NCBI GenBank assembly: GCA_963791435.1
Contig: CAWBSL010000001.1
Coordinates: forward strand, 1,553,817 to 1,617,816
Direction: 5' to 3'
DNA length: 64,000 nt
Source: Candidatus Dormiibacterota bacterium
GTDB lineage: Bacteria; Chloroflexota; Dormibacteria; Aeolococcales; Aeolococcaceae
The notes under the pieces were generated by a model. The model was given only the letters and a program-made list of their open reading frames with translations, did no database searches and was not told where the DNA came from. The position numbers were made by a program, and so were the translations under genes. Shown here piece after piece: positions 5,212 to 23,023 of this stretch. How positions within the stretch are numbered: the stretch's first letter is position 1; each line of letters begins with the position of its first letter.

Positions 5212-9734
<4,523 letters not shown>

Positions 9735-9735
<1 letters not shown>

Positions 9736-11168
9736 TGGGGGCGCGGACCGGCTTCCTCGAGCACACCCGCCACACCGCCCACAAACGACCGGTGTCGGAA
9801 CGGGTCGCCGACTACCGTGAGGTGTACCTCCCGCTTCCGGTGCAGGTGCTGCGCGAGCAGGGGTCACGGTGCATGGACTGCGGCGTCGCGTTCTGTCACA
9901 GCGGCTGCCCGCTCGGCAACCTCATCCCGGAGTGGAACGATCTCGTGTATCGCGACGACTGGAAGGCAGCCGTCGAACGCCTCCACGCCACCAACAACTT
10001 CCCGGAGTTCACCGGGCGTCTCTGTCCGGCGCCATGCGAGCCCGCCTGCGTGCTCGCCATCAACGATGACCCGGTCGCGATCAAGCAGATCGAGCAGTCG
10101 ATCATCGACCGCGCGTTCGATGAAGGATGGATCCGTGCCGAGCCGCCGTCGCATCGGACCGGACGTCGTGTTGCGGTCGTTGGTTCCGGGCCTGCCGGAC
10201 TCGCGGCCGCGCAGCAGCTCAATCGCGCCGGACACCGAGTCACCGTGTTTGAGCGCTCGGACCGGATCGGTGGGCTCCTTCGCTACGGCATCCCCGATTT
10301 CAAGATGGAGAAGTGGGTGCTCGACCGCCGCGTCGACCTGCTCGAGGCAGAGGGGATCACGTTCGAGACCGGCTACGACATCGGTGTCGACGTCACCGCG
10401 GCGCAATTGCGGGAGCGTTTCGATGCAGTCGTGCTCGCCGTCGGCGCCGATCGGCCTCGCGATGTCGCGGTGCCGGGTCGTGGACTGACGGGCGTGCACT
10501 TCGCGATGGACTACCTGGTGCAGCAGAACCGCAGGGTTGCGGGCGATCGCGTCCATGCGGTTCCCGAGATCAGCGCGCGCGGTCGTAACGTCGTGATCAT
10601 CGGCGGCGGCGATACGGGCGCCGACTGTCTCGGCAACGTCATCCGTGAGCAGTGCACTGACGTGCAGCAGCTGTACATCTACGCGCAACCGCCGGACACA
10701 CGGCCCGGGGACAACCCGTGGCCGCAGTGGCCGTTGATCCTCAGGACCTATCCCGCCCACGACGAGGGCGGCTCGCGCGAGTTCGGTCTGATGGTCACGA
10801 GCTTCGATGGCGAGAACGGCGCCGTGCAACGGGTTCGCGCTGCTCGTGTTGAGGCGCGGCGGGAGGACGGGCGGCGCAGCTTCGTCGCGCTTCCCGGTGA
10901 AGACGTGGCCCTGGAAGCCGACCTCGTGCTCATCGCGATCGGCTACGACGGCGCCACCCGCTCCGGCCTGCTCGACGACCTGTCGGTGACGTTTGACAAC
11001 GCGGGCAACCTCGCCGTCGACGATGCCTTTGCGTGCACGCAGTCCGGTGTGTTCGCAGCCGGCGACGCGGTGCGCGGCGCGTCACTGATCGTGTGGGCAA
11101 TCGCCGACGGACGCGCGGCGGCCCGCAGCTGCGACACGTACCTCACCGGCAGCGTGCGACTGCATTAG
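9735..11168 (+). CDS. gltD: glutamate synthase small subunit (NADPH-dependent)
   Basis: ATG overlaps the gltB TGA (TGATG). CxxxCxxxC Fe-S cluster, VAVVGSGPAGLAAA and IIGGGDTGADC FAD/NAD Rossmann motifs. Confidence 0.93.
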
Positions 11169-11175
11169 GCGATCG

Positions 11176-13362
11176 TCAGCCCGCAGTTGGCGCCGGTGTG
11201 GGAGTGGGCGCCGGGCTCGGGCTGCTGGGTGCCGTTGGCGGTGCGGTGGGGGATGGAGTCGGTGAAGGCTGCGTCGAGGGGCTCGGCGACGCCGACGGGC
11301 TCGGCTGCGCACTGGGGGTTGCGCTCGGCGACGCCGATGGCGACGGGGTCACATCGGGCAGCGGCCCGAGCTTGAGGTCCGGGACGATCTTGCCAATGCT
11401 GGGCAGGTCGGTCTGCGGCCCGCCAAACGGTGCATTGGTGCTCGGTGCGGCGATCACGAGCGCCCCTACGACTGCAGCAGCAGCGAGTCCGGTGAGCGCG
11501 AGCGGTAGGGCGACGGGCCGGCTGCGTTCCGGCCTGTCGCCGGTGTTCTGCGGCGACCGGGCATACGCACGGCGCTCCGGCGTGAGGATGATGCCCTCGG
11601 CGGCGAGACTCGCCCATGGCGCGTTGGAATACACGAACGCCTCGAAGACGAGCAGCAGCGCGAGCACGATCGTCGCTGCGCTCGGCGAGCGTACCAACAT
11701 CGCGGCTGCGCCCGCGACGCCCGCGATGGTGAGCAGCGTCTCCGCGCGCGACGAGCGCATCGCGCTCAGCAGCGAGCGTCCGTCCTTGCTCTTCGCGGTG
11801 CGAAGGAATTCCGCGTGCTTCTGCAGAAGACCACGGACGCACGCGAGCGTGACCACCCAGGACAGGGCGAACCAGACTCGCAATGCGTTGATCGCATCCC
11901 GCGTGCTTGCATGGCAGGCGCGGCGGAGCGCCCAGATCGCCCGCAGCATCCCCGTTGCTGCGAATGCCAGCGGCACCACGAGCACCGCTCCCGTGAGCTG
12001 ACGCACCGGGAGCCGCTCGTGGAGGGACGCCGCGAGTGCCGTCGCGAGCAGCAACACGGTGAATGTGGCGGTGAGCACTTCAGCGAACCACTGCACGCTG
12101 CCCAGGAGGTAGTGGATGCGCTGCGCGAGGGTGAGTCGCATCCGGTGCCGAGCGAAAGGAAGCATATCGCGCCAGTGGAACTTGAGGATCTGAATACCGC
12201 CGAGGGCCCAACGGAACCGCTGCTTCTTGAGGCCGTCGAAGTCAAGCGGCATCAACCCCTGCCCATACGCGGCCGGGTCATACACGCCGCGATACCCGGC
12301 GCCGAGCATGCGCAACGACGCCTCGGCATCCTCGGTGATGCACTCCTGGTTCCAACCGCCGATCTCGCTGAATGCCGAGCGGCGGATGAGCCCCATGGTG
12401 CCGCAGAAGATGATCGCGTTGCGATGGCTGCGCGCGATCATTGTGATGTCGAAGAAGTATCTGAAGCTGTAGAAGAGGCCGCGCAGATACGTGTTGTCGC
12501 GCCAGTCGCGATAGTGCTGCGACGTCTGCATGAACGCGACGGTCGGGTCGTCGAAGTACCCGATCGTGTTGCGCAGCCACTGGGGATGCACCTGGTAATC
12601 GGCATCGACGATGCCGAGGATCTCGACTTCGGCAGGGAGCCGCGGCGTCGCTTCGTTGAGCGCACCAGCCTTGTATCCCGGCCAGTTCTCGAGGTGAACG
12701 AACGTGAAGCGTGGCCCGAGTTGCGCGCAGAGTTCCTCGATGGGTTTCCAGAGCGCCGGGTCGGTGGTGTTGTTGTCGACGACCTGGACGATCAGATGGG
12801 GGTAGTCGATCTGCGCGAGTGATTCGAGGGTGGGTCGGACCACCTCGACGGGCTCGTTGTACGTCGGCACCTGCAGGGCGACCCACGGCTCGCGCGTGAG
12901 CGGCGGAGGCACCCGGCGGCGTTCGCGTCGGGAGAGGACGTCGCAGATCTCGAAGGTGAAGGACACCGACAGCGCAAGGGCAAGGATCTCGAAGACGAGC
13001 AGAACGATCGATGCGAGCAGCGCGCCGATCGGGAGTCCGTCGAAGAACGTCTGCACCGCGGCATACGTGAGGTAGCAGGTCGCGGCGGCCGTGACGGCCA
13101 GGAACAGCTGCGCACCGACCCAACTCCACCGCGGTTGGATGACGCGCATGACGACGATCAGGAGGATCGCCGCGATCCCAAGCGAGGTCATCCCCGGCTC
13201 GTCGTGCTCGATCTCGAGGAACGCGGCGCCCGCCCCGGCCAGGGCGATCGCGCAGAACGGAAGACCGAGCCACGCCCGCGCGGTCATGGCCGCCGGCAGC
13301 ATCGCGACGATCAGCGTTGCGGCGAGGAGGAGGGCGAAAAAGATGACGCTCTCGAGGATCAT
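11176..13362 (-). CDS. membrane-embedded family-2 glycosyltransferase of the processive beta-glycan synthase type (cellulose/chitin/NodC-like), with C-terminal Pro/Ser/Thr-rich tail
   Basis: 728 aa. N-terminal TM helices, GT2 core with VVDNNT, DAD(Y) and QRFRWALGG (Q-x-x-R-W), then more TM helices and a ~70-aa SPSASPSAT... low-complexity tail. No PilZ domain. Confidence 0.8.
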   Translation of the reverse strand: MILESVIFFALLLAATLIVAMLPAAMTARAWLGLPFCAIALAGAGAAFLEIEHDEPGMTSLGIAAILLIVVMRVIQPRWSWVGAQLFLAVTAAATCYLTYAAVQTFFDGLPIGALLASIVLLVFEILALALSVSFTFEICDVLSRRERRRVPPPLTREPWVALQVPTYNEPVEVVRPTLESLAQIDYPHLIVQVVDNNTTDPALWKPIEELCAQLGPRFTFVHLENWPGYKAGALNEATPRLPAEVEILGIVDADYQVHPQWLRNTIGYFDDPTVAFMQTSQHYRDWRDNTYLRGLFYSFRYFFDITMIARSHRNAIIFCGTMGLIRRSAFSEIGGWNQECITEDAEASLRMLGAGYRGVYDPAAYGQGLMPLDFDGLKKQRFRWALGGIQILKFHWRDMLPFARHRMRLTLAQRIHYLLGSVQWFAEVLTATFTVLLLATALAASLHERLPVRQLTGAVLVVPLAFAATGMLRAIWALRRACHASTRDAINALRVWFALSWVVTLACVRGLLQKHAEFLRTAKSKDGRSLLSAMRSSRAETLLTIAGVAGAAAMLVRSPSAATIVLALLLVFEAFVYSNAPWASLAAEGIILTPERRAYARSPQNTGDRPERSRPVALPLALTGLAAAAVVGALVIAAPSTNAPFGGPQTDLPSIGKIVPDLKLGPLPDVTPSPSASPSATPSAQPSPSASPSPSTQPSPTPSPTAPPTAPSSPSPAPTPTPAPTAG
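11187..11400. repeat. degenerate short tandem repeats (gctcggcgacgccgayggc-like) encoding the Pro/Ser/Thr-rich tail of the GT2 protein
   Basis: Repetitive GC-rich DNA visible in the sequence. It encodes SPSASPSATPSAQPSPS... Confidence 0.5.
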
Positions 13363-13651
13363 GCGTCCTTGTTCCCGTGGGCTCGCGCGGGAAGGGCACG
13401 AGCATCTAATCTACTAGTAGAACTAGCAGGTTTTATCCGCGTTACGGTATCAGACGTGTGCTCCTGCAGAAGAAGCCAGGGCCTCGGACGCAGTTCAGCG
13501 TGAGTTCACGGCCCTCGCCCGCGTCGCCGAACCGGCCGAGGATCGACCTTCCCTTTCTGGTACCTATATGATAGTCTCGCTGTAAGATTCAGATACAGCC
13601 TCTATGGCAAGCTATCTGACGCAAGCCAGCGAGAAACAAGGAGGTAGATCA
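13363..13651. promoter_or_regulatory. AT-rich divergent intergenic/promoter island with perfect 10-bp palindrome ctactagtag (13411-13420)
   Basis: Local GC drops well below the ~70% window average. A TATATGATAGT-like stretch and the palindrome lie between the divergent GT2 gene and the small membrane protein gene. Confidence 0.4.
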
Positions 13652-16320: not shown

Positions 16321-17787
16321 ATGCCCGTGGCCGAGCAGAACGCCGCCTCGACACCCGCCGCACCGGTCATCCGCCGGCGCATCGTCTTCATCGTCACCGC
16401 GCTCGGCGCTTTCATGGCGTCACTCGATCTCTCGATCGTCAACGTCGCCTTCCCGGCGCTCGAACGATCGTTCCCGAGCGATCCGCGCGCGACGCTCGCG
16501 TGGGTGATCACCAGCTACGGCATCGTGTTCGGCTCCCTTCTCGTGATCGCGGGACGCACCGCGGACCGGCTCGGCAGCCGGCGGGTGTTCATCGCGGGCC
16601 TCACGGTCTTCACCATCGGCTCGGCGCTGTGCGGGCTGGCTCCTTCGGTCTCGCTGCTCATCGCGGGGCGCGTCATCCAGGGCTTCGGCGCCGCCGCCCT
16701 GCTGCCGGCCTCGCTGAGCCTGCTTCTCGGGGCATTCCCTGTCGAACGCCGCTCGCAGGTAGTCGCCCTCTGGGGCGGCGTCGGCGCGCTCGCCGTTGCA
16801 ACCGGCCCGTCGCTCGGAGCGGCGCTCATCACCATCGGTGGGTGGCGATCGGCCTTCTTCGTCAATGTTCCGATCGGTGTTGTTGCCTGGATTGCGGGAC
16901 GGCGAGTGCTCGTCAATTCGCGAGCCGGGACTCCGGGAGTGGCGCCGGACTATGCCGGTGCAGCGCTCATCGCAGTGACGCTTTCGGCATTGGTCCTCGG
17001 CATCACCGAAGGCCCCACGTGGGGCTGGGATTCAGCGCCGGTCCTCGCATGCTTCGCCGGGGCGGTGATCGTCGGCGCGGGCTTCCTGTACCGGTCTGCG
17101 CGCCATCCCGAACCGGTCCTGGACCTCACCCTTTTCAGGGCTCGATCATTCAGCGTCGCCAATGTCGCGACGTTCCTCTACGCGATGGGGTTCTTCGCGA
17201 TGCTGCTGGGGAACATCCTGTTCCTCACGAGCGTGTGGCACTACCCGATTCTGGAAGCGGGTCTCGCCGTCACGCCGGGTCCACTCGTGGTCGCGGTGGT
17301 GTCCGGACCCGCGGGACGGGTGGCGTCTCGCGTTGGGTTCCGCAGGGTGCTGCTCGTCGGTTTCACGGTGTTCTTCCTCGGGCTCACGTGGTTCGCAACA
17401 CGTGTCGGTCTGCAGCACGACTACCTCACGGTGTGGTTGCCCGGCACGCTGATCATCGGTCTGGGCATCGGACTCACCTTCCCGGTGCTGAGCGCAGCAG
17501 CCGTGTCGAGCCTGCATCCGAATCGCTTCGCCGTGGGAAGCGCGGTGAATCAGACAGCTCGTCAGATCGGCGGCGCATTCGGTATCGCGTTGCTGGTGGT
17601 GATCCTCGGCACGCCGCACAGCCTCACCGGCGCGCTCACCGCCTTTCACCACCTGTGGTGGTACGCGGCCGCAACGGCGTTGCTGTCCGGCGTCGCCTGC
17701 ACGCTCATCAGCCACAAGCCGCGAGCTCAGGTGGAATCGATCGCGTCCGTCGCCGCGTCTGCTGAGGAGACCCGCGTCGCCGTGTAG
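16321..17787 (+). CDS. MFS transporter, DHA2 (EmrB/QacA) family, 14 TM
   Basis: LDLSIVNVAFPAL, GRTADRLGSRRVF and GFGAAALLP motifs. Divergent from the HxlR regulator. Confidence 0.85.
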   Translation: MPVAEQNAASTPAAPVIRRRIVFIVTALGAFMASLDLSIVNVAFPALERSFPSDPRATLAWVITSYGIVFGSLLVIAGRTADRLGSRRVFIAGLTVFTIGSALCGLAPSVSLLIAGRVIQGFGAAALLPASLSLLLGAFPVERRSQVVALWGGVGALAVATGPSLGAALITIGGWRSAFFVNVPIGVVAWIAGRRVLVNSRAGTPGVAPDYAGAALIAVTLSALVLGITEGPTWGWDSAPVLACFAGAVIVGAGFLYRSARHPEPVLDLTLFRARSFSVANVATFLYAMGFFAMLLGNILFLTSVWHYPILEAGLAVTPGPLVVAVVSGPAGRVASRVGFRRVLLVGFTVFFLGLTWFATRVGLQHDYLTVWLPGTLIIGLGIGLTFPVLSAAAVSSLHPNRFAVGSAVNQTARQIGGAFGIALLVVILGTPHSLTGALTAFHHLWWYAAATALLSGVACTLISHKPRAQVESIASVAASAEETRVAV

Positions 17788-18857
17788 CCGGCGAGCACCC
17801 GGCGCGATTCGCGCGCCATCTCCACGTCCTCGCGTGCCGTGACCACGACGACAGCAGGTGGGTGATCAGGAATCCCGATCACTGCGTCGCCGTCGGCGGC
17901 GAGCAGTGTCTCCGGAAGTCCGAACAAACCGAGCCGCGCGCACACGCGGCCACGGATCAAGGCCGAGTGCTCACCGACTCCGCCGGTGAACACGAGCGCA
18001 TCGAGCCGATCGAGCGATGCCGCGAGCCCGCCGATCACGCGGCACAGGACGTGCACGTACACGTCGAGCGCCAGCAGGCACGACGCATCACCGGCAGCAG
18101 CCTCGCGTTCCACCTCGCGCATGTCGGACTGGCCGCAGAGGCCCATGAGTTCACTGCCGTGTTCCAGTGAGCGGGTCATCGCACCGACCGAGACGCCGTG
18201 ATGTTCCTGGAGCCAGAGCAACGCGCCCGGGTCCACTGTCCCGCTCCGCGTCGCCATCACTGCGCCTTCGAGCGGCGTGAAGCCCATGCTCGTATCGACG
18301 CTGCGACCTTCGCGAACGGCGCATGCGGAGACTCCCGACCCGATGTGCGTGATCACGACCTGCAGCTGCTCGACCGGTCTGCCGAGCAGCTCCGCGCTGC
18401 GTCCGCTCGCCCACGCGTAGGACAGGCCGTGAAAGCCGTAGCGCCGCATGCCGAACTCTCGCCAGTGCGCGGGGACCGCATACGTTGTGGCGTAGGTGGG
18501 GATGCGCGCGTGGAACGAGGTGTCGAGACACACGACCTGTGGACGGTCGATCGACTTGCGGGCGACGTCGAGGAGCGCCAGCGCCGGCGGGAGATGCAGC
18601 GGAGCCAGCTCGATAGCCGCTTCGAGCTGCTCGCGGACCTCGTCATCGACGAGCGTTGCATGCCGGACGGCGGCTCCGCCATGCACGAGGCGGTGAGCGA
18701 CAGCGTCGATCTCGCCGGCTCGCGCTGCGAAATCGTCAAGCGTGCTGACGGGATCGGCGTCGCCGTCCACCTCCTGCGCCTCTTCGACTGTGTCGCTCTC
18801 GCCGATGACACTCAGCTTCAGGCTGCTCGAGCCTGCGTTGACCGCAAGAATGCGCAT
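17727..18857 (-). CDS. ackA: acetate kinase
   Basis: MRILAVNAGSSSLK N-terminus and GFHGLSY, ITHIGSG and TGGVGEHS motifs. Confidence 0.9.
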   Translation of the reverse strand: MRILAVNAGSSSLKLSVIGESDTVEEAQEVDGDADPVSTLDDFAARAGEIDAVAHRLVHGGAAVRHATLVDDEVREQLEAAIELAPLHLPPALALLDVARKSIDRPQVVCLDTSFHARIPTYATTYAVPAHWREFGMRRYGFHGLSYAWASGRSAELLGRPVEQLQVVITHIGSGVSACAVREGRSVDTSMGFTPLEGAVMATRSGTVDPGALLWLQEHHGVSVGAMTRSLEHGSELMGLCGQSDMREVEREAAAGDASCLLALDVYVHVLCRVIGGLAASLDRLDALVFTGGVGEHSALIRGRVCARLGLFGLPETLLAADGDAVIGIPDHPPAVVVVTAREDVEMARESRRVLAGYTATRVSSADAATDAIDST

Positions 18858-18860
18858 CGA

Positions 18861-21284
18861 TCAGGCCGATGCTTCGGGGCGCGTCCCATTCGCGTTCGGT
18901 CCGGGCCAGCGCCAGTTGCGAATCTCGGGCATGTCCTCGAAGTGTTCGCGAACGTAGTCGTGATGACGAAGCAACTGGTCTCGACAGAACCTGTTGAGAT
19001 CGTCAGCACCGGCGGGTGTTCGCCGAGACCGATGCAGTGCCTCCATCACGAGGTGGTACCGGCTCATCTCATTGAGCACCACCATGTCGAACGGCGTGGT
19101 GGTCGTGCCACGTTCGTTGTATCCCCGAACATGGAACCGAGGAGCGTTCGGGCGGCCGTGCACGACCTGGTGAAATGCCCGCGCATAGCCGTGAAACGCC
19201 ATCACCACGTCGGTGTCATCGGTGAAGAGCTCGGTGAACGTCTCGGCACTGAGCGCATGCGGATGGAACGGCGCCGGGCTCATCGCCAGGAGGTCAACGA
19301 TGTTGACGAGCCGGAAGCGCAGGTCAGGCACGTACTGGCGAAGCAGGGCCGCGGCGCCGAGTGTTTCCAGCGTCGGGATATCACCGGCGCACCCGAGCAC
19401 GACGTCCGGCCGGCCGTCACCGGGGTTCGACGCCCAGCCCCACACCGACGCGCCACGTACGCAGTGCTCGATCGCCGCGTCCATCGACAGATACTGCAGT
19501 TCGGGCTGCTTGTCGATCACGATGAGGTTGACGTAATTGCGGCTGGAGAAGCAGTGGTCGGCGACGGAGAGCAGGCAGTTGGCGTCCGGAGGCAGATACA
19601 CGCGGACGACGTCGCCACTCATCGCCATGACGGTGTCGATGAGGCCCGGCCCCTGGTGACTGAAGCCGTTGTGGTCATTGCGCCAGCACGTGGAAGTCAG
19701 GAGCACGTTGAGCGACGCGACCGGCTCACGCCAGCGCAGGTCACGGGCAGCCTCGAGCCACTTTGCGTGCTGGACCGTCATCGATGCGGAGACCATCGCG
19801 AAGGCTTCGTATGTAGCGAAGAGCCCGTGCCGTCCGGTCAGCAGGTAGCCCTCGAGCCAACCTTCGCAGAGGTGCTCTGACAGCACCTCCATCACGCGTC
19901 CACCGGCGCTGACGTGATCGTCGATCGGGATGGTGGCTTCCTCGAAGCAGCGGGTCTCGATGTCGAAGACTGCGCCGAGGCGATTGCTGTTGGTCTCATC
20001 CGGACAGAAGAGGCGAAAGTTGTCCGGGTTGGCGCGGTAGATGTCGCGAATCCACTCACCGAGACGGCGCGTCGACTCGGCGACGGTGACTCCGGGGTCG
20101 ACGGGCATTGCGTAGTCCGTGAACACCGGCAGCTTCAGGGGGCGGAGGATCCTGCCGCCGTTGGCATAGGCGCTTGCGCCCATGCGCTTGTCTCCTTCGG
20201 GCATGACTTCGGTCACCGCGCTGACCGGAGTGCCGCCGCTGTCGAACAGTTCCTCGGGTCGATAGCTGCGCATCCATTCCTCGAGTTGCGCAAGGTGTTC
20301 CGGGTTGGTCCGCACGTTGTCGAGCGGAACCTGGTGGGCGCGAAACGTTCCCTCCACCGGGAGACCGTCGACGAACTTCGGTCCGGTCCAGCCCTTGGGC
20401 GTCCGCAGAACGATCGCGGGCCACGTGGGCCGGCCGTCGCTTGCGCCACGCCGCGCCGTCGCCTGGATCTCGCGAATCCTGTCGTAGCAGCCGTCGAGGG
20501 TTCGTGCGAACTCCTCGTGCACGGTCTGCGGGTCGTTACCGCTGACGACCTGGACGTCGTATCCGTGCGCGCTGAGCAGCCCGATGACGTCGCGCTCGTG
20601 AGCTCGCCCGAGAACGGTTGGTCCGCTGATCTTGTAGCCGTTGAGCTGCAGGATCGGGAGCACTGCCCCGTCGCGTCGTGGATCGAGAAAGCTCACGCCC
20701 TTCCACGATCCTTCGAGCGGGCCGGTCTCCGCCTCGCCGTCGCCGACCACGCACGCCGCGATCAAGTCGGGGTTGTCAAAAACTGCGCCGAACGCGTGCA
20801 CGAGCGCGTAGCCCAGCTCGCCGCCCTCGTGGATCGAACCGGGAGTTGGGACGCTGACATGACTCGGAATGCCGCCCGGTGTGGAGAACTGGCGTACCAG
20901 CCGGAGAAGGCCGGCCTCGTCGCGCGTGACCTCCGGGTAGATCTCCGAATACGTGCCTTCGAGATACACGTTGGCGACCACGGCCGGACCGCCATGCCCG
21001 GGGCCTGCGACGTACAGCACGTCGCAGTCGCGCTGCTGGATCAGACGGTTGAGCTGGACGTAGATCAGGCTCAACGCCGGGGACGTTCCCCAATGGCCGA
21101 GCAGCCGGGGCTTGATGTGCTCGGCCGCTAGGGGCTCGCGGAGCAGCGGGTTCGCCTGGAGGTAGATCTGCGCGACGGTCAGGTAATTGGCCGCCCGCCA
21201 CGTGGTGACGAGCGCATCCGTATCGATCGTGCCGGTGGATGGGGTCATGGTGGTCACCAAGGGCATCGTAGCGGCGGGGGCCAT
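18861..21284 (-). CDS. xfp: xylulose-5-phosphate/fructose-6-phosphate phosphoketolase
   Basis: Colinear with bifidobacterial Xfp across ~800 aa (WRAANYL, GHWGT.P, GPGHGGPA, EGGELGY, GDGEAETGP...). Start placed at the ATG at 21284 (MAPAAT...). The 869-aa ORF from 21470 gives an N-terminus longer than homologs. Confidence 0.9.
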   Translation of the reverse strand: MAPAATMPLVTTMTPSTGTIDTDALVTTWRAANYLTVAQIYLQANPLLREPLAAEHIKPRLLGHWGTSPALSLIYVQLNRLIQQRDCDVLYVAGPGHGGPAVVANVYLEGTYSEIYPEVTRDEAGLLRLVRQFSTPGGIPSHVSVPTPGSIHEGGELGYALVHAFGAVFDNPDLIAACVVGDGEAETGPLEGSWKGVSFLDPRRDGAVLPILQLNGYKISGPTVLGRAHERDVIGLLSAHGYDVQVVSGNDPQTVHEEFARTLDGCYDRIREIQATARRGASDGRPTWPAIVLRTPKGWTGPKFVDGLPVEGTFRAHQVPLDNVRTNPEHLAQLEEWMRSYRPEELFDSGGTPVSAVTEVMPEGDKRMGASAYANGGRILRPLKLPVFTDYAMPVDPGVTVAESTRRLGEWIRDIYRANPDNFRLFCPDETNSNRLGAVFDIETRCFEEATIPIDDHVSAGGRVMEVLSEHLCEGWLEGYLLTGRHGLFATYEAFAMVSASMTVQHAKWLEAARDLRWREPVASLNVLLTSTCWRNDHNGFSHQGPGLIDTVMAMSGDVVRVYLPPDANCLLSVADHCFSSRNYVNLIVIDKQPELQYLSMDAAIEHCVRGASVWGWASNPGDGRPDVVLGCAGDIPTLETLGAAALLRQYVPDLRFRLVNIVDLLAMSPAPFHPHALSAETFTELFTDDTDVVMAFHGYARAFHQVVHGRPNAPRFHVRGYNERGTTTTPFDMVVLNEMSRYHLVMEALHRSRRTPAGADDLNRFCRDQLLRHHDYVREHFEDMPEIRNWRWPGPNANGTRPEASA

Positions 21285-21360
21285 CTCCCTCGGTTGTGAG
21301 CCGGTTATGAGGCCTCCTCCTACGGGCATCGGGCGTGTCACATTGTCCCTTGCACCAACG

Positions 21361-22458
21361 ATGCAAGGTCGAATCGAGAACGAGCCCATTGAGAGGGGCC
21401 GACGCCGCTTGAACGCGCGATCCGTGATCGCGTTGCTGTCCGCGATCGCCGTCGCGGGGGCGATCGGCATCGCGATCTCCCTCGCGCAACACAGGGCAGC
21501 GCCGCTCGCTCAGCACGCGCCGGATCCGTTCCGGCCGCAGCCGGTTACCCCCTCGCCTGTTCCGAATGAGCCCCAGGCGGGTCTGGGCTTCACCGTCGCC
21601 GATGACCCCGCAACCCACGAGGTCGTCCTCTTCGGTGGGGTTGGCGACTACCCGAGCACCTGGCTGTGGAACGGCTCTCGATGGACGCTGGCGCATCCCG
21701 CAACGAGCCCCGAGGGACGCTTCGGCGCATCCGCCGCGTACGACCCGCAGACGAAGACGGTGGTGATGTTCGGGGGGCGGCTCGAGGACGGCACTCCCAT
21801 CCACGACACGTGGGCTTGGGACGGCACCACCTGGAATGATCTCGATAGCGGCGCAGGCGGTCCACCGCCCGGTGAGGGGTCGGACATGGCCTGGGACGCG
21901 GCGACCACACAGATGATCTTGATCACGAGCTCTGGGGTCATCTCGAACCCTGCGGAGACCTGGATCTGGGCCGGCACGCACTGGAGCCACCCGTCAGGGG
22001 CTGTGCTTCCACCAGGCGCGGACTACAGCCCGATGTCGTTCGATCCCGTGAGCAAGTCGCTGCTTGCAGTGGGTTGCTGCGTCGGCCCTCCGCCGTCCAC
22101 CGGCGCGGCGAGCACCACCTGGCGGTGGACCGGCGCGACGTGGAGGTTGGTGCCCACCCCGGCCGTCGCGCCCGTCAACGGGTCGACCATGCAACTGGAC
22201 CCGGTGACCCATCACCTCGTGCTGTGCGCGTGTGGCGAATCGACGCTGCCGCAGCCGGAGTTCTGGGTCTGGAACGGCGCCGAGTGGGCCAGGTTCTCGA
22301 CTGCGTTGCCGGCGGCCGGCGGGACGGAGATCACCGATGACAACGACCTGCTGATCTTTGGGCCATCGAAGTCGAACTCGCAGTCACAAGCGCCACCGGT
22401 CGATGTCTGGGTGCTGACCCCGAGATCGATGTGGTCGCAGCTCGACCGGAACGGCTAG
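21361..22458 (+). CDS. membrane-anchored Kelch-repeat (galactose-oxidase-like beta-propeller) protein
   Basis: N-terminal signal anchor (SVIALLSAIAVAGAIGIAISLA), then repeated ..W.W.G..W.. blades (WLWNGSRW, WAWDGTTW, WIWAGTHW, WRWTGATW, WVWNGAEW). Confidence 0.65.
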   Translation: MQGRIENEPIERGRRRLNARSVIALLSAIAVAGAIGIAISLAQHRAAPLAQHAPDPFRPQPVTPSPVPNEPQAGLGFTVADDPATHEVVLFGGVGDYPSTWLWNGSRWTLAHPATSPEGRFGASAAYDPQTKTVVMFGGRLEDGTPIHDTWAWDGTTWNDLDSGAGGPPPGEGSDMAWDAATTQMILITSSGVISNPAETWIWAGTHWSHPSGAVLPPGADYSPMSFDPVSKSLLAVGCCVGPPPSTGAASTTWRWTGATWRLVPTPAVAPVNGSTMQLDPVTHHLVLCACGESTLPQPEFWVWNGAEWARFSTALPAAGGTEITDDNDLLIFGPSKSNSQSQAPPVDVWVLTPRSMWSQLDRNG

Positions 22459-22486: not shown

Positions 22487-23023
22487 CTAGCTGCAAGCCC
22501 CGGCGACCATCTGCTGATTGATCTGCCCGGGGGAAGACGCAGATCCGAAGTTCCAGTTGTTCTCGGCAAACGCCAGTGAAGCCTCTGTCGTGACGAGCGG
22601 AATCGTCCCGGCATTCGGAGCCGGCGCACTGAGATCCTCGCAGGCGGCGCTCATCACCTCCGTGGCCGTGGCATCCGGTCCCAGCGACAACAGCTTTGAT
22701 GGAATCTTCGCGAAGAAGGTGATCGCGCCCACGTTCGGGCGCCCGTCCGGACACACCGCCGGTGAGACGTTGCCGTCCTGTGCGATGACGACGGAGCCGC
22801 AGTTCTCGGGGTGGCCGGGAAAGGGCCACGGCGTCGGACCGGGCGGCGTCGCCACCGGGGCCGACAATGACGACGCCGTCGGAGTCGGCGCCGAAGAGCT
22901 GGTGGGCGCGGATGTTGCGGGCGATGGCGTGGTGCTCCCGCACGCCACCACGGCGAGCGAGCACGTTGCGGCGATGATCGCCGTGCGCAGCGGGTCGAAT
23001 CTTGCGTACCACATACGACGCAT
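22487..23023 (-). CDS. secreted lipoprotein with Ser/Pro/Thr-rich linker
   Basis: Signal peptide ending in lipobox-like LAVVAC|GS, then low-complexity TPSPATSAPTSSSAPTPTASS and a small Cys-containing domain. Confidence 0.5.
   Translation of the reverse strand: MRRMWYARFDPLRTAIIAATCSLAVVACGSTTPSPATSAPTSSSAPTPTASSLSAPVATPPGPTPWPFPGHPENCGSVVIAQDGNVSPAVCPDGRPNVGAITFFAKIPSKLLSLGPDATATEVMSAACEDLSAPAPNAGTIPLVTTEASLAFAENNWNFGSASSPGQINQQMVAGACS

Follow-up and report, generated by a model that had tools for sequence, protein, structure and literature searches.

What polymer is made by a cellulose-synthase-like enzyme that has no exporter gene nearby, and by which route would that polymer leave the cell? 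The question is raised by an open reading frame (ORF) at positions 11,176 to 13,362 of a 64,000-nucleotide stretch of contig CAWBSL010000001.1 from a Candidatus Dormiibacterota bacterium, hereafter the window. The original prediction, made from the sequence of this window, had described the product as a processive glycosyltransferase family 2 (GT2) glycan synthase with a Pro/Ser/Thr-rich tail and as an orphan of any export partner. Our analysis indicates that the gene very likely encodes a processive β-glucan synthase-translocase. Within this assignment, the reading that we favor, at a probability of roughly 55%, is a self-contained, single-polypeptide synthase-translocase with the BcsA fold whose product would be a β-1,4-linked, cellulose-like glucan.

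The ORF has the codon-position GC pattern of a real gene, with a third-position GC of 0.85 in a 67% GC genome. Its Pfam matches are to GT2 families only, together with a weak Cellulose_synt match, and the D, DxD and QRFRW motifs previously read as those of a processive GT2 synthase are present in the translation and invariant in 51 homologs (Table 1). An AlphaFold2 model built from these homologs has a mean predicted local distance difference test score (pLDDT) of 76 and a predicted template modeling score of 0.75; pLDDT is mostly above 80 over residues 1-600 and below 50 over residues 610-728. From the N to the C terminus, the model lays out five helices, the GT-A domain, the QRFRW interface helix, two transmembrane (TM) helices, a broken amphipathic third interface helix (IF3), the FLRTAK loop and two more TM helices. 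After this last channel pair come a short helical segment, a hydrophobic helix at 622-638 and a disordered tail. The N-terminal helices span residues 2-20, 30-52, 55-75, 81-107 and 112-143 (pLDDT mostly 75-95), and those of the channel region span residues 412-448, 456-483, 487-513, 539-558 and 562-588.

A structure model had been suggested as a check on the proposed cellulose-synthase-type TM arrangement, and the channel helices are indeed there. The top Foldseek match of the model is BcsA (E 3e-20 over 574 columns), with plant CesA, hyaluronan synthases and chitin synthases ranking lower, and 497 model residues superpose on R. sphaeroides BcsA (RsBcsA) at 3.0 Å, an alignment that extends beyond the GT domain to the channel helices. 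The acceptor-site motif of BcsA, FFCGS, whose role has been described (PMC10237404), has an equivalent in the window protein (Table 1). In the gating loop, F, L, R, T and K are invariant in the 51 homologs; compared with the FxVTxK of BcsA, the window FLRTAK keeps F, T and K in place and carries an invariant R at the position of V. The general form F-x-R-T-[PAS]-K occurs about 138 residues past QxxRW in nearly all of the 82 loci described below, and NdvB-type enzymes have FFRTPK in this loop (PMC10237404).

A β-1,4-glucan is the most likely product because, in relatives, the synthase gene is coupled to a gene for a BcsZ-type endoglucanase of glycoside hydrolase family 8 (GH8). Relatives were scanned at one genome per species (574 relatives, with clades drawn from the best 80), and gene neighborhoods were compared across 82 fetched loci, denoted by L-numbers, in which a neighbor family was considered recurrent when found in at least 4. 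The GH8 gene lies directly upstream of the synthase gene, on the same strand, in L002, L005, L008, L010 and L020, with a 3-bp gap or a 4-bp overlap (ATGA) at the junction and a GGAGG inside the GH8 3' end. The same arrangement was verified in the more divergent L086 and L087, where the synthases share 59% and 57% identity with that of the window; the verified coupled relatives thus number at least 7, and 13 GH8 matches lie on contigs of exactly the same size as synthase-bearing contigs. These GH8 partners carry a lipobox (LA[GA]C) and the catalytic-acid context TSEGQSY, and their sole NCBIfam match is BcsZ. Their best PDB matches are endo-β-1,4-glucanases (BcsZ of E. coli and P. putida, CMCax and CelA, E 1e-19 to 1e-22), compared with an E-value of about 1e-4 for GH8 xylanases and no match for chitosanases. 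The partner is a BcsZ-like lipoprotein, its gene translationally coupled to that of the synthase. Support for a glucan also comes from an independent clade (clade 2 below), in which a GH12-like gene is adjacent to the synthase in 6 loci and has a P. furiosus endoglucanase as its best PDB match.

In the mechanism that we propose, the enzyme would take UDP-glucose as donor and extend the glucan chain at its non-reducing end against W385, while the F-x-R-T-x-K gating loop would open and close over the active site. The chain would be pushed out through the channel of the enzyme's own TM helices. Because the protein has no PilZ domain, cyclic di-GMP (c-di-GMP) would not be expected to control it in the manner of BcsA. 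An additional C-terminal TM helix would place the disordered tail, rich in Pro, Ser and Thr (PST), outside the cell, and an outer-membrane exporter would not be needed in a monoderm host.

By sequence, the protein is not a BcsA equivalog, since its score against the curated CelA hidden Markov model (HMM; TIGR03030) is 133.8 bits, far below the cutoff of 699.1. Its scores against the other curated models are 98.2 for BcsA (NF008558, cutoff 992), 104.9 for PgaC/IcaA (cutoff 422.3) and 46.5 for NodC (cutoff 550). A neighbor-joining tree built from catalytic-core sequences of the relatives, with a fragment of RsBcsA taken from an alignment as its root, clusters three clades far from RsBcsA; our placement rests on this tree together with the curated-HMM scores and the structural ranking. 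Common to the three clades is a signature consisting of DNNT (DDG in BcsA), G[FY]KAGA (HAKAG in BcsA) and F-x-R-T-[PAS]-K, whereas BcsA, CrdS and BgsA keep FxVTxK (PMC6821405). Clade 1 comprises Dormibacteria, Chloroflexia and Limnocylindria (motifs IF[CAG]GT, QT[SP]Q and TED), with the core of the window protein 49-53% identical to those from Chloroflexia and Limnocylindria. Clade 2 comprises Actinomycetes, Acidimicrobiia and Thermoleophilia (PFVGT, QTFEG, [SC]ED and DADD; 42-44% core identity to the window protein), and clade 3 Azospirillum, Methylomonas and other Proteobacteria (IQHGT, QSPQD and [CT]ED; 43-47%). The outgroup, RsBcsA, has FFCGS, QTPH and TED and a core identity of 33%.

An N-terminal GH17 domain, which Pfam does not find in the window protein, is present in clade 3 (homologs in L048 and L056). 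The proteins of this clade also fit the published motif table of the NdvB-type “Orphan BcsA-like” family (CED, QRFRW, IQHGT, FFRTPK, GFKGG, QSPQ, PilZ absent), a family that explicitly takes in Methylomonas and has been linked to cyclic β-1,3-glucan (Spiers et al. 2023, PMC10237404). Clade 3 is thus the NdvB-type “Orphan” GH17-GT2 family. By sequence, it is these GH17-GT2 enzymes that are closest among characterized proteins, and not BcsA, PgaC, NodC or HasA, which had been named earlier as references for a phylogenetic placement. The fold, the chemistry and the logic of export are those already known for processive GT2 synthases. What appears to be new is a Dormibacteria/Chloroflexota clade with a C-terminal architecture of its own, its membership in one DNNT/FxRTxK superfamily with NdvB-type enzymes, and the association of a single synthase core with glucanases of three families, GH8, GH12 and GH17.

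Several points weigh against a β-1,4-linked product and against parts of the proposed architecture. Of about 40 Dormibacteria/Chloroflexota loci representing different species, only 5 have an adjacent GH8 gene, and it is absent from the window genome. Lichenases, too, are found in the GH8 and GH12 families. For the last TM helix and the tail, pLDDT is below 50, so that the model does not fix their position. The closest characterized family, at 43-47% core identity as against 33% for BcsA, is the one linked to β-1,3-glucan (PMC10237404), and no sequence feature is known to predict the linkage (PMC6821405, PMC10237404).

The main rival builds on these last two points. A β-1,3-glucan synthase (curdlan- or laminarin-like), working by the same channel mechanism as the GT2 half of the NdvB-type enzymes, would fit the core identities, the clustering of the three clades away from BcsA and the signature (DNNT, G[FY]KAGA, F-x-R-T-P-K and QRFRW) held in common with the GH17-fused proteobacterial “Orphan”/NdvB proteins, the more so as linkage cannot be read from sequence. 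We nevertheless consider it unlikely, although it is the best of the alternatives: no Dormibacteria locus was found to have a fused or adjacent gene for a GH17, GH16 or other β-1,3-glucanase, and the hydrolase that is coupled to the synthase is of the BcsZ type. GH8, as classified in CAZy, is not known to include β-1,3-glucanases. The acceptor-site motifs of the window protein (IFCGT, TED and QTSQ) also differ from those of the NdvB type (IQHGT, CED and QSPQ), with FCGT and TED being nearer to BcsA; as an argument about linkage this is weak, because no linkage determinant is known in the literature.

A mixed-linkage (1,3;1,4)-β-glucan synthase, comparable to Sinorhizobium BgsA or to RiGT2 of the Gram-positive Romboutsia, seems to us a good deal less credible. 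The lichenases that CAZy lists in both GH8 and GH12 would accommodate such a product, as would the position of the window motifs between those of the BcsA and NdvB types. Moreover, a BcsB-independent synthase of this kind exists in a monoderm (PMC10374906). However, PilZ is indispensable for RiGT2 activity and the C terminus of BgsA binds c-di-GMP, whereas the window protein possesses neither feature, and the best GH8 matches are to cellulases of the BcsZ/CelA group.

A polymer of another sugar, such as a chitin/chitosan-, poly-N-acetylglucosamine-, mannan- or xylan-like glycan, ranks next and is improbable. It could draw on the sub-threshold PgaC and NodC matches and on the chitosanases and xylanases that GH8 also holds, but both HMM scores lie below that of CelA, and hyaluronan and chitin synthases rank structurally below BcsA and CesA. 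In addition, the GH8 partner fits glucanases far better than xylanases and fits no chitosanase, a TreT-like enzyme of the nucleoside diphosphate-glucose type recurs in the cluster, and no deacetylase gene (pgaB/icaB type) is found nearby in the window or among the recurrent neighbor families. Finally, a non-processive membrane GT2 with a minimal cellulose-synthase-like fold, making a lipid-linked sugar or glycolipid without polymer export, is very improbable, as PcManGT aligns over 321 residues compared with 455-497 for BcsA, channel helices included, the QRFRW motif, the F-x-R-T-x-K loop and about nine TM helices are invariant, and in relatives a gene of the secreted endoglucanase type is coupled to that of the synthase. 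A dolichol-phosphate-type placement, raised earlier as a possibility, is likewise at odds with the protein: the hallmark of Dpm/GtrB-type enzymes is a GT-A domain without QxxRW, gating loop or multi-helix channel, and all three are present here.

Returning to the β-1,4-glucan synthase that we favor, the absence of GH8 from the window genome can be followed in some detail. A protein identical to the window synthase, in the same gene arrangement, is found on a 3,026,395-bp contig; the median genome size of Dormibacteria is 2.87 Mb (PMC10608941). The window is syntenic with L004 and L005 over xfp, ackA, the MFS gene, PsiE, DUF6458, the synthase gene, gltD and gltB. The synthase of L005 is 84% identical to that of the window over residues 1-671, and in L005 the GH8 gene stands between DUF6458 and the synthase gene, where the window has a short junction (Table 1). 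We searched for a GH8 pseudogene remnant upstream of the window synthase by tblastn and found none at E<=10. Among the best 120 of 653 matches, no GH8 homolog at least 48% identical lies on the contigs of 3,026,395, 787,054 or 62,148 bp. A clean deletion, rather than a move to another site, appears to have removed the gene from the window organism, because the matches listed include no GH8 homolog on the 3,026,395-bp contig. Despite this loss, the synthase is under strong purifying selection, with dN/dS values for residues 1-640 of 0.09-0.12 relative to five close relatives, four of them likewise without GH8 next to the synthase gene.

The C-terminal part of the protein departs most clearly from the BcsA plan. 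The original prediction had the protein PilZ-less, which holds: Pfam finds neither PilZ nor any other domain in residues 517-728 at E<=10. A cryptic or remnant PilZ domain was also considered and rejected, since, besides the lack of any match at this threshold, the RxxxR at 598-602 (R602) is not conserved and there is no region of the size of a β-barrel. At the position of the BcsA PilZ linker, following the eighth or ninth helix, stands a 25-residue segment (589-613) that matches no Pfam domain and has a mean identity of 0.79, equal to that of the GT domain; R597, S603, Q605, G608, R610 and P611 are invariant in the 51 homologs. The segment is a candidate regulatory or gating element in place of PilZ. 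It is followed by an additional TM helix that is found in all members of the monoderm clades and has no equivalent in BcsA.

The low-complexity tail of about 70 residues noted earlier is 68 residues long (661-728) and consists of 24 P, 15 S, 9 T and 9 A. Its predicted extracytoplasmic location, also claimed before, follows from the cytoplasmic GT domain, the count of helices and the positive-inside rule, with 6 K/R in residues 580-620 versus 2 in the tail. Tandem Repeats Finder detected no tandem DNA repeat from which the tail could have originated. In most complete Dormibacteria orthologs, P, S, T and A make up about 0.8-0.95 of the last 60 residues, and the extension consists of a semi-conserved 20-residue stretch followed by a disordered PST/A-rich tail of about 40-100 residues. 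The extension of clade 2 has 140-280 residues, is repeat- or propeller-like and has no Pfam match, whereas clade 3 proteins, which have GH17 at the N terminus instead, stop about 12-65 residues past the final TM helix. With a PST tail in clade 1, a long extension in clade 2 and GH17 in clade 3, each clade thus puts some module on the outer face beside the channel exit.

Among the actinobacterial members, we observed that the C-terminal ~260 residues of L046:1041-3869, L053:9262-12171, L066:9959-12748 and L047:9788-12553, and also of L070 and L080, are extracytoplasmic and have no Pfam match. One type of extension is formed by two ~110-residue repeats (motif ...LVDTF...V.SF.E.LSG.P.GSVSL), and the other is a GYWLVGSDGSVY.FGDA propeller-like repeat. 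The neighbors of these long-extension synthases include a GH12-like gene and a signal peptidase S26 gene.

BcsB and GlxA each supply a TM anchor that is needed for, or stabilizes, their synthase (PMC11022532), and in plant CesA an additional C-terminal TM helix serves trimerization (PMC10374906). By analogy, the C-terminal helix of the window protein might act as a BcsB/GlxA-like anchor or as a CesA-like trimerization helix. A bolder proposal, which we put forward tentatively and would not ourselves bet on, is that the Dormibacteria/Chloroflexota enzymes constitute a third, self-sufficient type of monoderm cellulose synthase, with the C-terminal helix as a BcsB/GlxA anchor in cis, the 25-residue segment in place of PilZ and the PST tail reaching through the wall. 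More broadly, the DNNT/FxRTxK superfamily would then be one core coupled independently to GH8, GH12 and GH17, with linkage or product processing differing by clade.

Table 1. Coordinates in the window of the synthase gene, its parts and its upstream region.
Feature	Position	Strand	Basis or remark
Synthase ORF, complete	11176..13362	minus	728 aa plus stop, ATG start, TGA stop
N-terminal membrane bundle, residues 1-143, five predicted helices	12934..13362	minus	AlphaFold2 and hydropathy
GT2 (GT-A) catalytic domain, cytoplasmic, residues 144-375	12238..12933	minus	PF13641, PF00535, PF13632; aligns to BcsA GT domain
D196-N-N-T (in VVDNNT), UDP-binding Asp	12766..12777	minus	invariant in 51 homologs; family version of BcsA DDG
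D253-A-D255 (DxD)	12598..12606	minus	invariant in 51 homologs
I318-F-C-G-T322, equivalent of BcsA FFCGS acceptor-site motif	12397..12411	minus	motif comparison
T343-E-D345, finger helix, catalytic base	12328..12336	minus	invariant in 51 homologs
Q381-R-F-R-W385 on interface helix IF2	12208..12222	minus	invariant in 51 homologs
Channel-forming region, residues 401-588: two TM, IF3, gating loop, two TM	11599..12162	minus	AlphaFold2
Gating-loop motif F519-L-R-T-A-K524	11791..11808	minus	family form F-x-R-T-[PAS]-K; BcsA FxVTxK
Conserved cytoplasmic segment, residues 589-613 (T-P-E-R-R-A-Y-x-x-S-P-Q-N-T-G-D-R-P)	11524..11598	minus	at position of BcsA PilZ linker
Additional C-terminal TM helix, residues ~614-640	11443..11523	minus	hydropathy 2.38; AlphaFold2 helix 622-638, pLDDT <50
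Predicted extracytoplasmic tail, residues 641-728	11179..11442	minus	641-660 semi-conserved juxtamembrane, 661-728 disordered Pro/Ser/Thr/Ala-rich
Intergenic region between synthase gene and divergent DUF6458 gene	13363..13603		relatively AT-rich, presumed promoter region
Junction replacing the L005 GH8 gene	13366..13407		42 bp versus ~1.28 kb; flanks align on both sides (blastn)

The immediate setting of the gene agrees with its earlier description. The synthase gene is convergent with gltD, whose TAG stop ends at 11168, and 7 bp (GCGATCG) separate it from the synthase stop, which starts at 11176. The upstream region is the AT-rich island that had been noted: its GC content is 57.3%, compared with 66.9% for the window, and falls within the lowest 0.5% of 241-bp windows. 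A scan for σ70-like promoters, not designed for the host phylum, gave no minus-strand match for the synthase gene, its sole match being on the plus strand. Annotation of the surroundings, from about 1.8 to 22.5 kb, gives genes for an AMP-binding enzyme and DAHP synthase, gltB, gltD, DUF6458, PsiE, HxlR, an MFS transporter, ackA and phosphoketolase, in addition to two unassigned ORFs. As had been stated, none resembling bcsB, pgaB or kps genes is seen among them, and BcsB and BcsC are likewise absent from the neighbor families recurring in at least 4 of the 82 loci, the rest of the genome lying outside this search.

Some features of the surrounding genes may be recorded in their own right. The longest gltD ORF overlaps the end of gltB (window 9648-9735). 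The public gene call of gltD has 477 residues (MGARTGF...), and its start would be the ATG at 9732; this suggests that gltB and gltD are translationally coupled, because the ATG would overlap the gltB stop by 4 bp. A pair of phosphoketolase (XFP) and acetate kinase genes stands beside the MFS transporter and the HxlR regulator (window 17727-21470), a block that is syntenic in L004 and L005.

Two other ORFs, a Kelch protein and a PST-linker lipoprotein, had been named as the nearest secretory partners. Both exist, but neither belongs to the recurrent neighbor families. The Kelch-repeat membrane ORF (21187-22458, plus strand) is single-pass, with about five WxW-type Kelch-like repeats and weak Kelch Pfam matches; as its longest version runs into the phosphoketolase gene, translation probably begins downstream of 21470. 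The lipoprotein (22487-23023, minus strand; lipobox VVAC) is convergent with it. We also considered the Kelch ORF as a GlxA-like partner and rejected it, as it has no PDB sequence match at E<=1, GlxA and galactose oxidase included, and does not recur.

Neighborhood conservation had been proposed as a further check; no neighbor gene is conserved across all 82 loci, and partners are clade-specific. After GH8, the second recurrent neighbor is a TreT-like GT4, which scores 253 bits, below the trehalose-synthase cutoff. The gene order is GH8-synthase-GT4 in L002:8753-13630 and L008:1509-6353 and GT4-synthase in L034:8544-12259. In the L003 genome, the GT4 gene is beside GH8 (L088:6001-8648), with the synthase gene about 115 kb away; this relocated synthase gene is two genes from a GH15/TREH_N trehalase-like gene. 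Trehalose and glucan metabolism may be linked in these organisms.

GGDEF or GGDEF-EAL genes were observed beside the PilZ-less synthase in L016:12003-14051, L037:1349-4714 and the downstream part of L040:3556-7197, as well as in L024, L061 and L078. Such adjacency is limited to few loci, at a frequency not clearly above chance, and could hint at control of the synthase by c-di-GMP through another route. An apparent synthase-GGDEF/EAL fusion in L040 proved to be an artifact, a wrong-frame ORF running across a masked N-run into the downstream GGDEF-EAL gene. A possible clade-specific partner in one Dormibacteria sub-clade is a membrane protein of about 220 residues without a Pfam match (L035:5529-6200, with homologs in L023, L030, L031, L036 and L038); in 5 of 6 loci, its gene immediately precedes that of the synthase on the same strand.

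The top 120 homologs are 55-100% identical to the window protein, and the named close homologs all come from metagenome-assembled genomes (MAGs) of Candidatus Dormibacterota/Dormibacteria, a few labeled Chloroflexi. Dormibacteria-type synthases (55-61% identical, IFCGT or IFAGT) were also observed on contigs in MAGs labeled otherwise, namely a Micrarchaeaceae archaeon (L036), Acidiferrales (L030 and L035) and Actinomycetes (L026); these contigs are probably mis-binned. Candidatus Dormibacteria are widespread uncultured soil bacteria, prominent in cold, nutrient-poor soils. A full-text literature search for Dormibacterota together with cellulose synthase returned no description of their synthases.

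Dormibacteria are regarded as a sister group to, or a class within, Chloroflexota and are counted among the monoderm Terrabacteria (PMC10608941), from which placement we presume a monoderm envelope. If this is correct, no outer-membrane partner of the BcsC, PgaA or Kps type is expected, so that the absence of one is unremarkable. The description of the synthase as an orphan of export partners is thus accurate in that no exporter gene is nearby, yet it is less striking if the host is a monoderm, and it overlooks the coupled GH8 partner carried by relatives.

That the synthase is conserved and under strong purifying selection suggests that Dormibacteria make an extracellular glucan, which could contribute to desiccation or cold tolerance, to aggregation and to soil carbon. 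The family also offers natural variants of the BcsA machine lacking PilZ and BcsB, of use for enzymology. The series of three clades with GH8, GH12 and GH17 partners could help to find the determinant of β-1,3 versus β-1,4 linkage, a question that the literature treats as open (PMC6821405).

Among known systems, BcsA (R. sphaeroides 4HG6/4P00; E. coli 9FMV) is the best structural match. The two enzymes have the same order of elements (N-terminal TM helices, GT-A, IF2 with QxxRW, two TM helices, IF3, gating loop, two TM helices), the same D, DxD, TED, QRxRW and FCG[ST] motifs and, in relatives of the window synthase, the same BcsZ-type GH8 partner gene. They differ in sequence, with 24% identity overall and 33% in the core, and in motifs, as the window protein has DNNT for DDG, G[FY]KAG for HAKAG and FxRTxK for FxVTxK. 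The window protein lacks the PilZ domain of BcsA (RxxxR, D/NxSxxG), has no bcsB, bcsC or other bcs genes nearby, and possesses one more N-terminal helix, the additional C-terminal TM helix and the PST tail.

The NdvB-type GH17-GT2 enzymes (Pseudomonas NdvB and its Methylomonas and Azospirillum homologs) are nearer in sequence, with about 38% identity over residues ~120-555 and 43-47% in the core. Like the window protein, they have DNNT, G[FY]K.G (GYKAG in the window, GFKGG in NdvB), QRFRW and an F-x-R-T-P-K-like loop, lack PilZ and are encoded apart from any bcs operon. Their N-terminal periplasmic GH17 domain (PF00332-PF13641) is missing from the window protein; they have no PST tail, their acceptor-site motifs differ as given above, and their hosts are diderm.

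The CslA-GlxA system of Streptomyces resembles what we propose for the window enzyme, being a monoderm cellulose-synthase-like GT2 that works without BcsB or outer-membrane components; it is associated with an endoglucanase gene, cslZ, and produces β-1,4-glucan in vitro (PMC11022532). CslA, however, needs the membrane-anchored copper oxidase GlxA from its own operon, whereas no glxA is adjacent in the window, and it has FXVTXK, a partial PilZ domain and a response to c-di-GMP (PMC11022532). The actinobacterial clade of the superfamily is also distinct from CslA-GlxA, its neighbors being GH12 and signal peptidase genes rather than glxA. RiGT2 (Romboutsia ilealis) and BgsA/CrdS provide further cases of a BcsA-fold GT2 working without a co-encoded BcsB, and across these enzymes the fold is seen to form 1,4-, 1,3- or mixed linkages (PMC10374906, PMC6821405). 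RiGT2 has and needs PilZ, CrdS and BgsA end in a soluble region of about 100 residues, and all of them keep FxVTxK, whereas the window enzyme has the 25-residue conserved segment, the additional TM helix and the predicted external tail.

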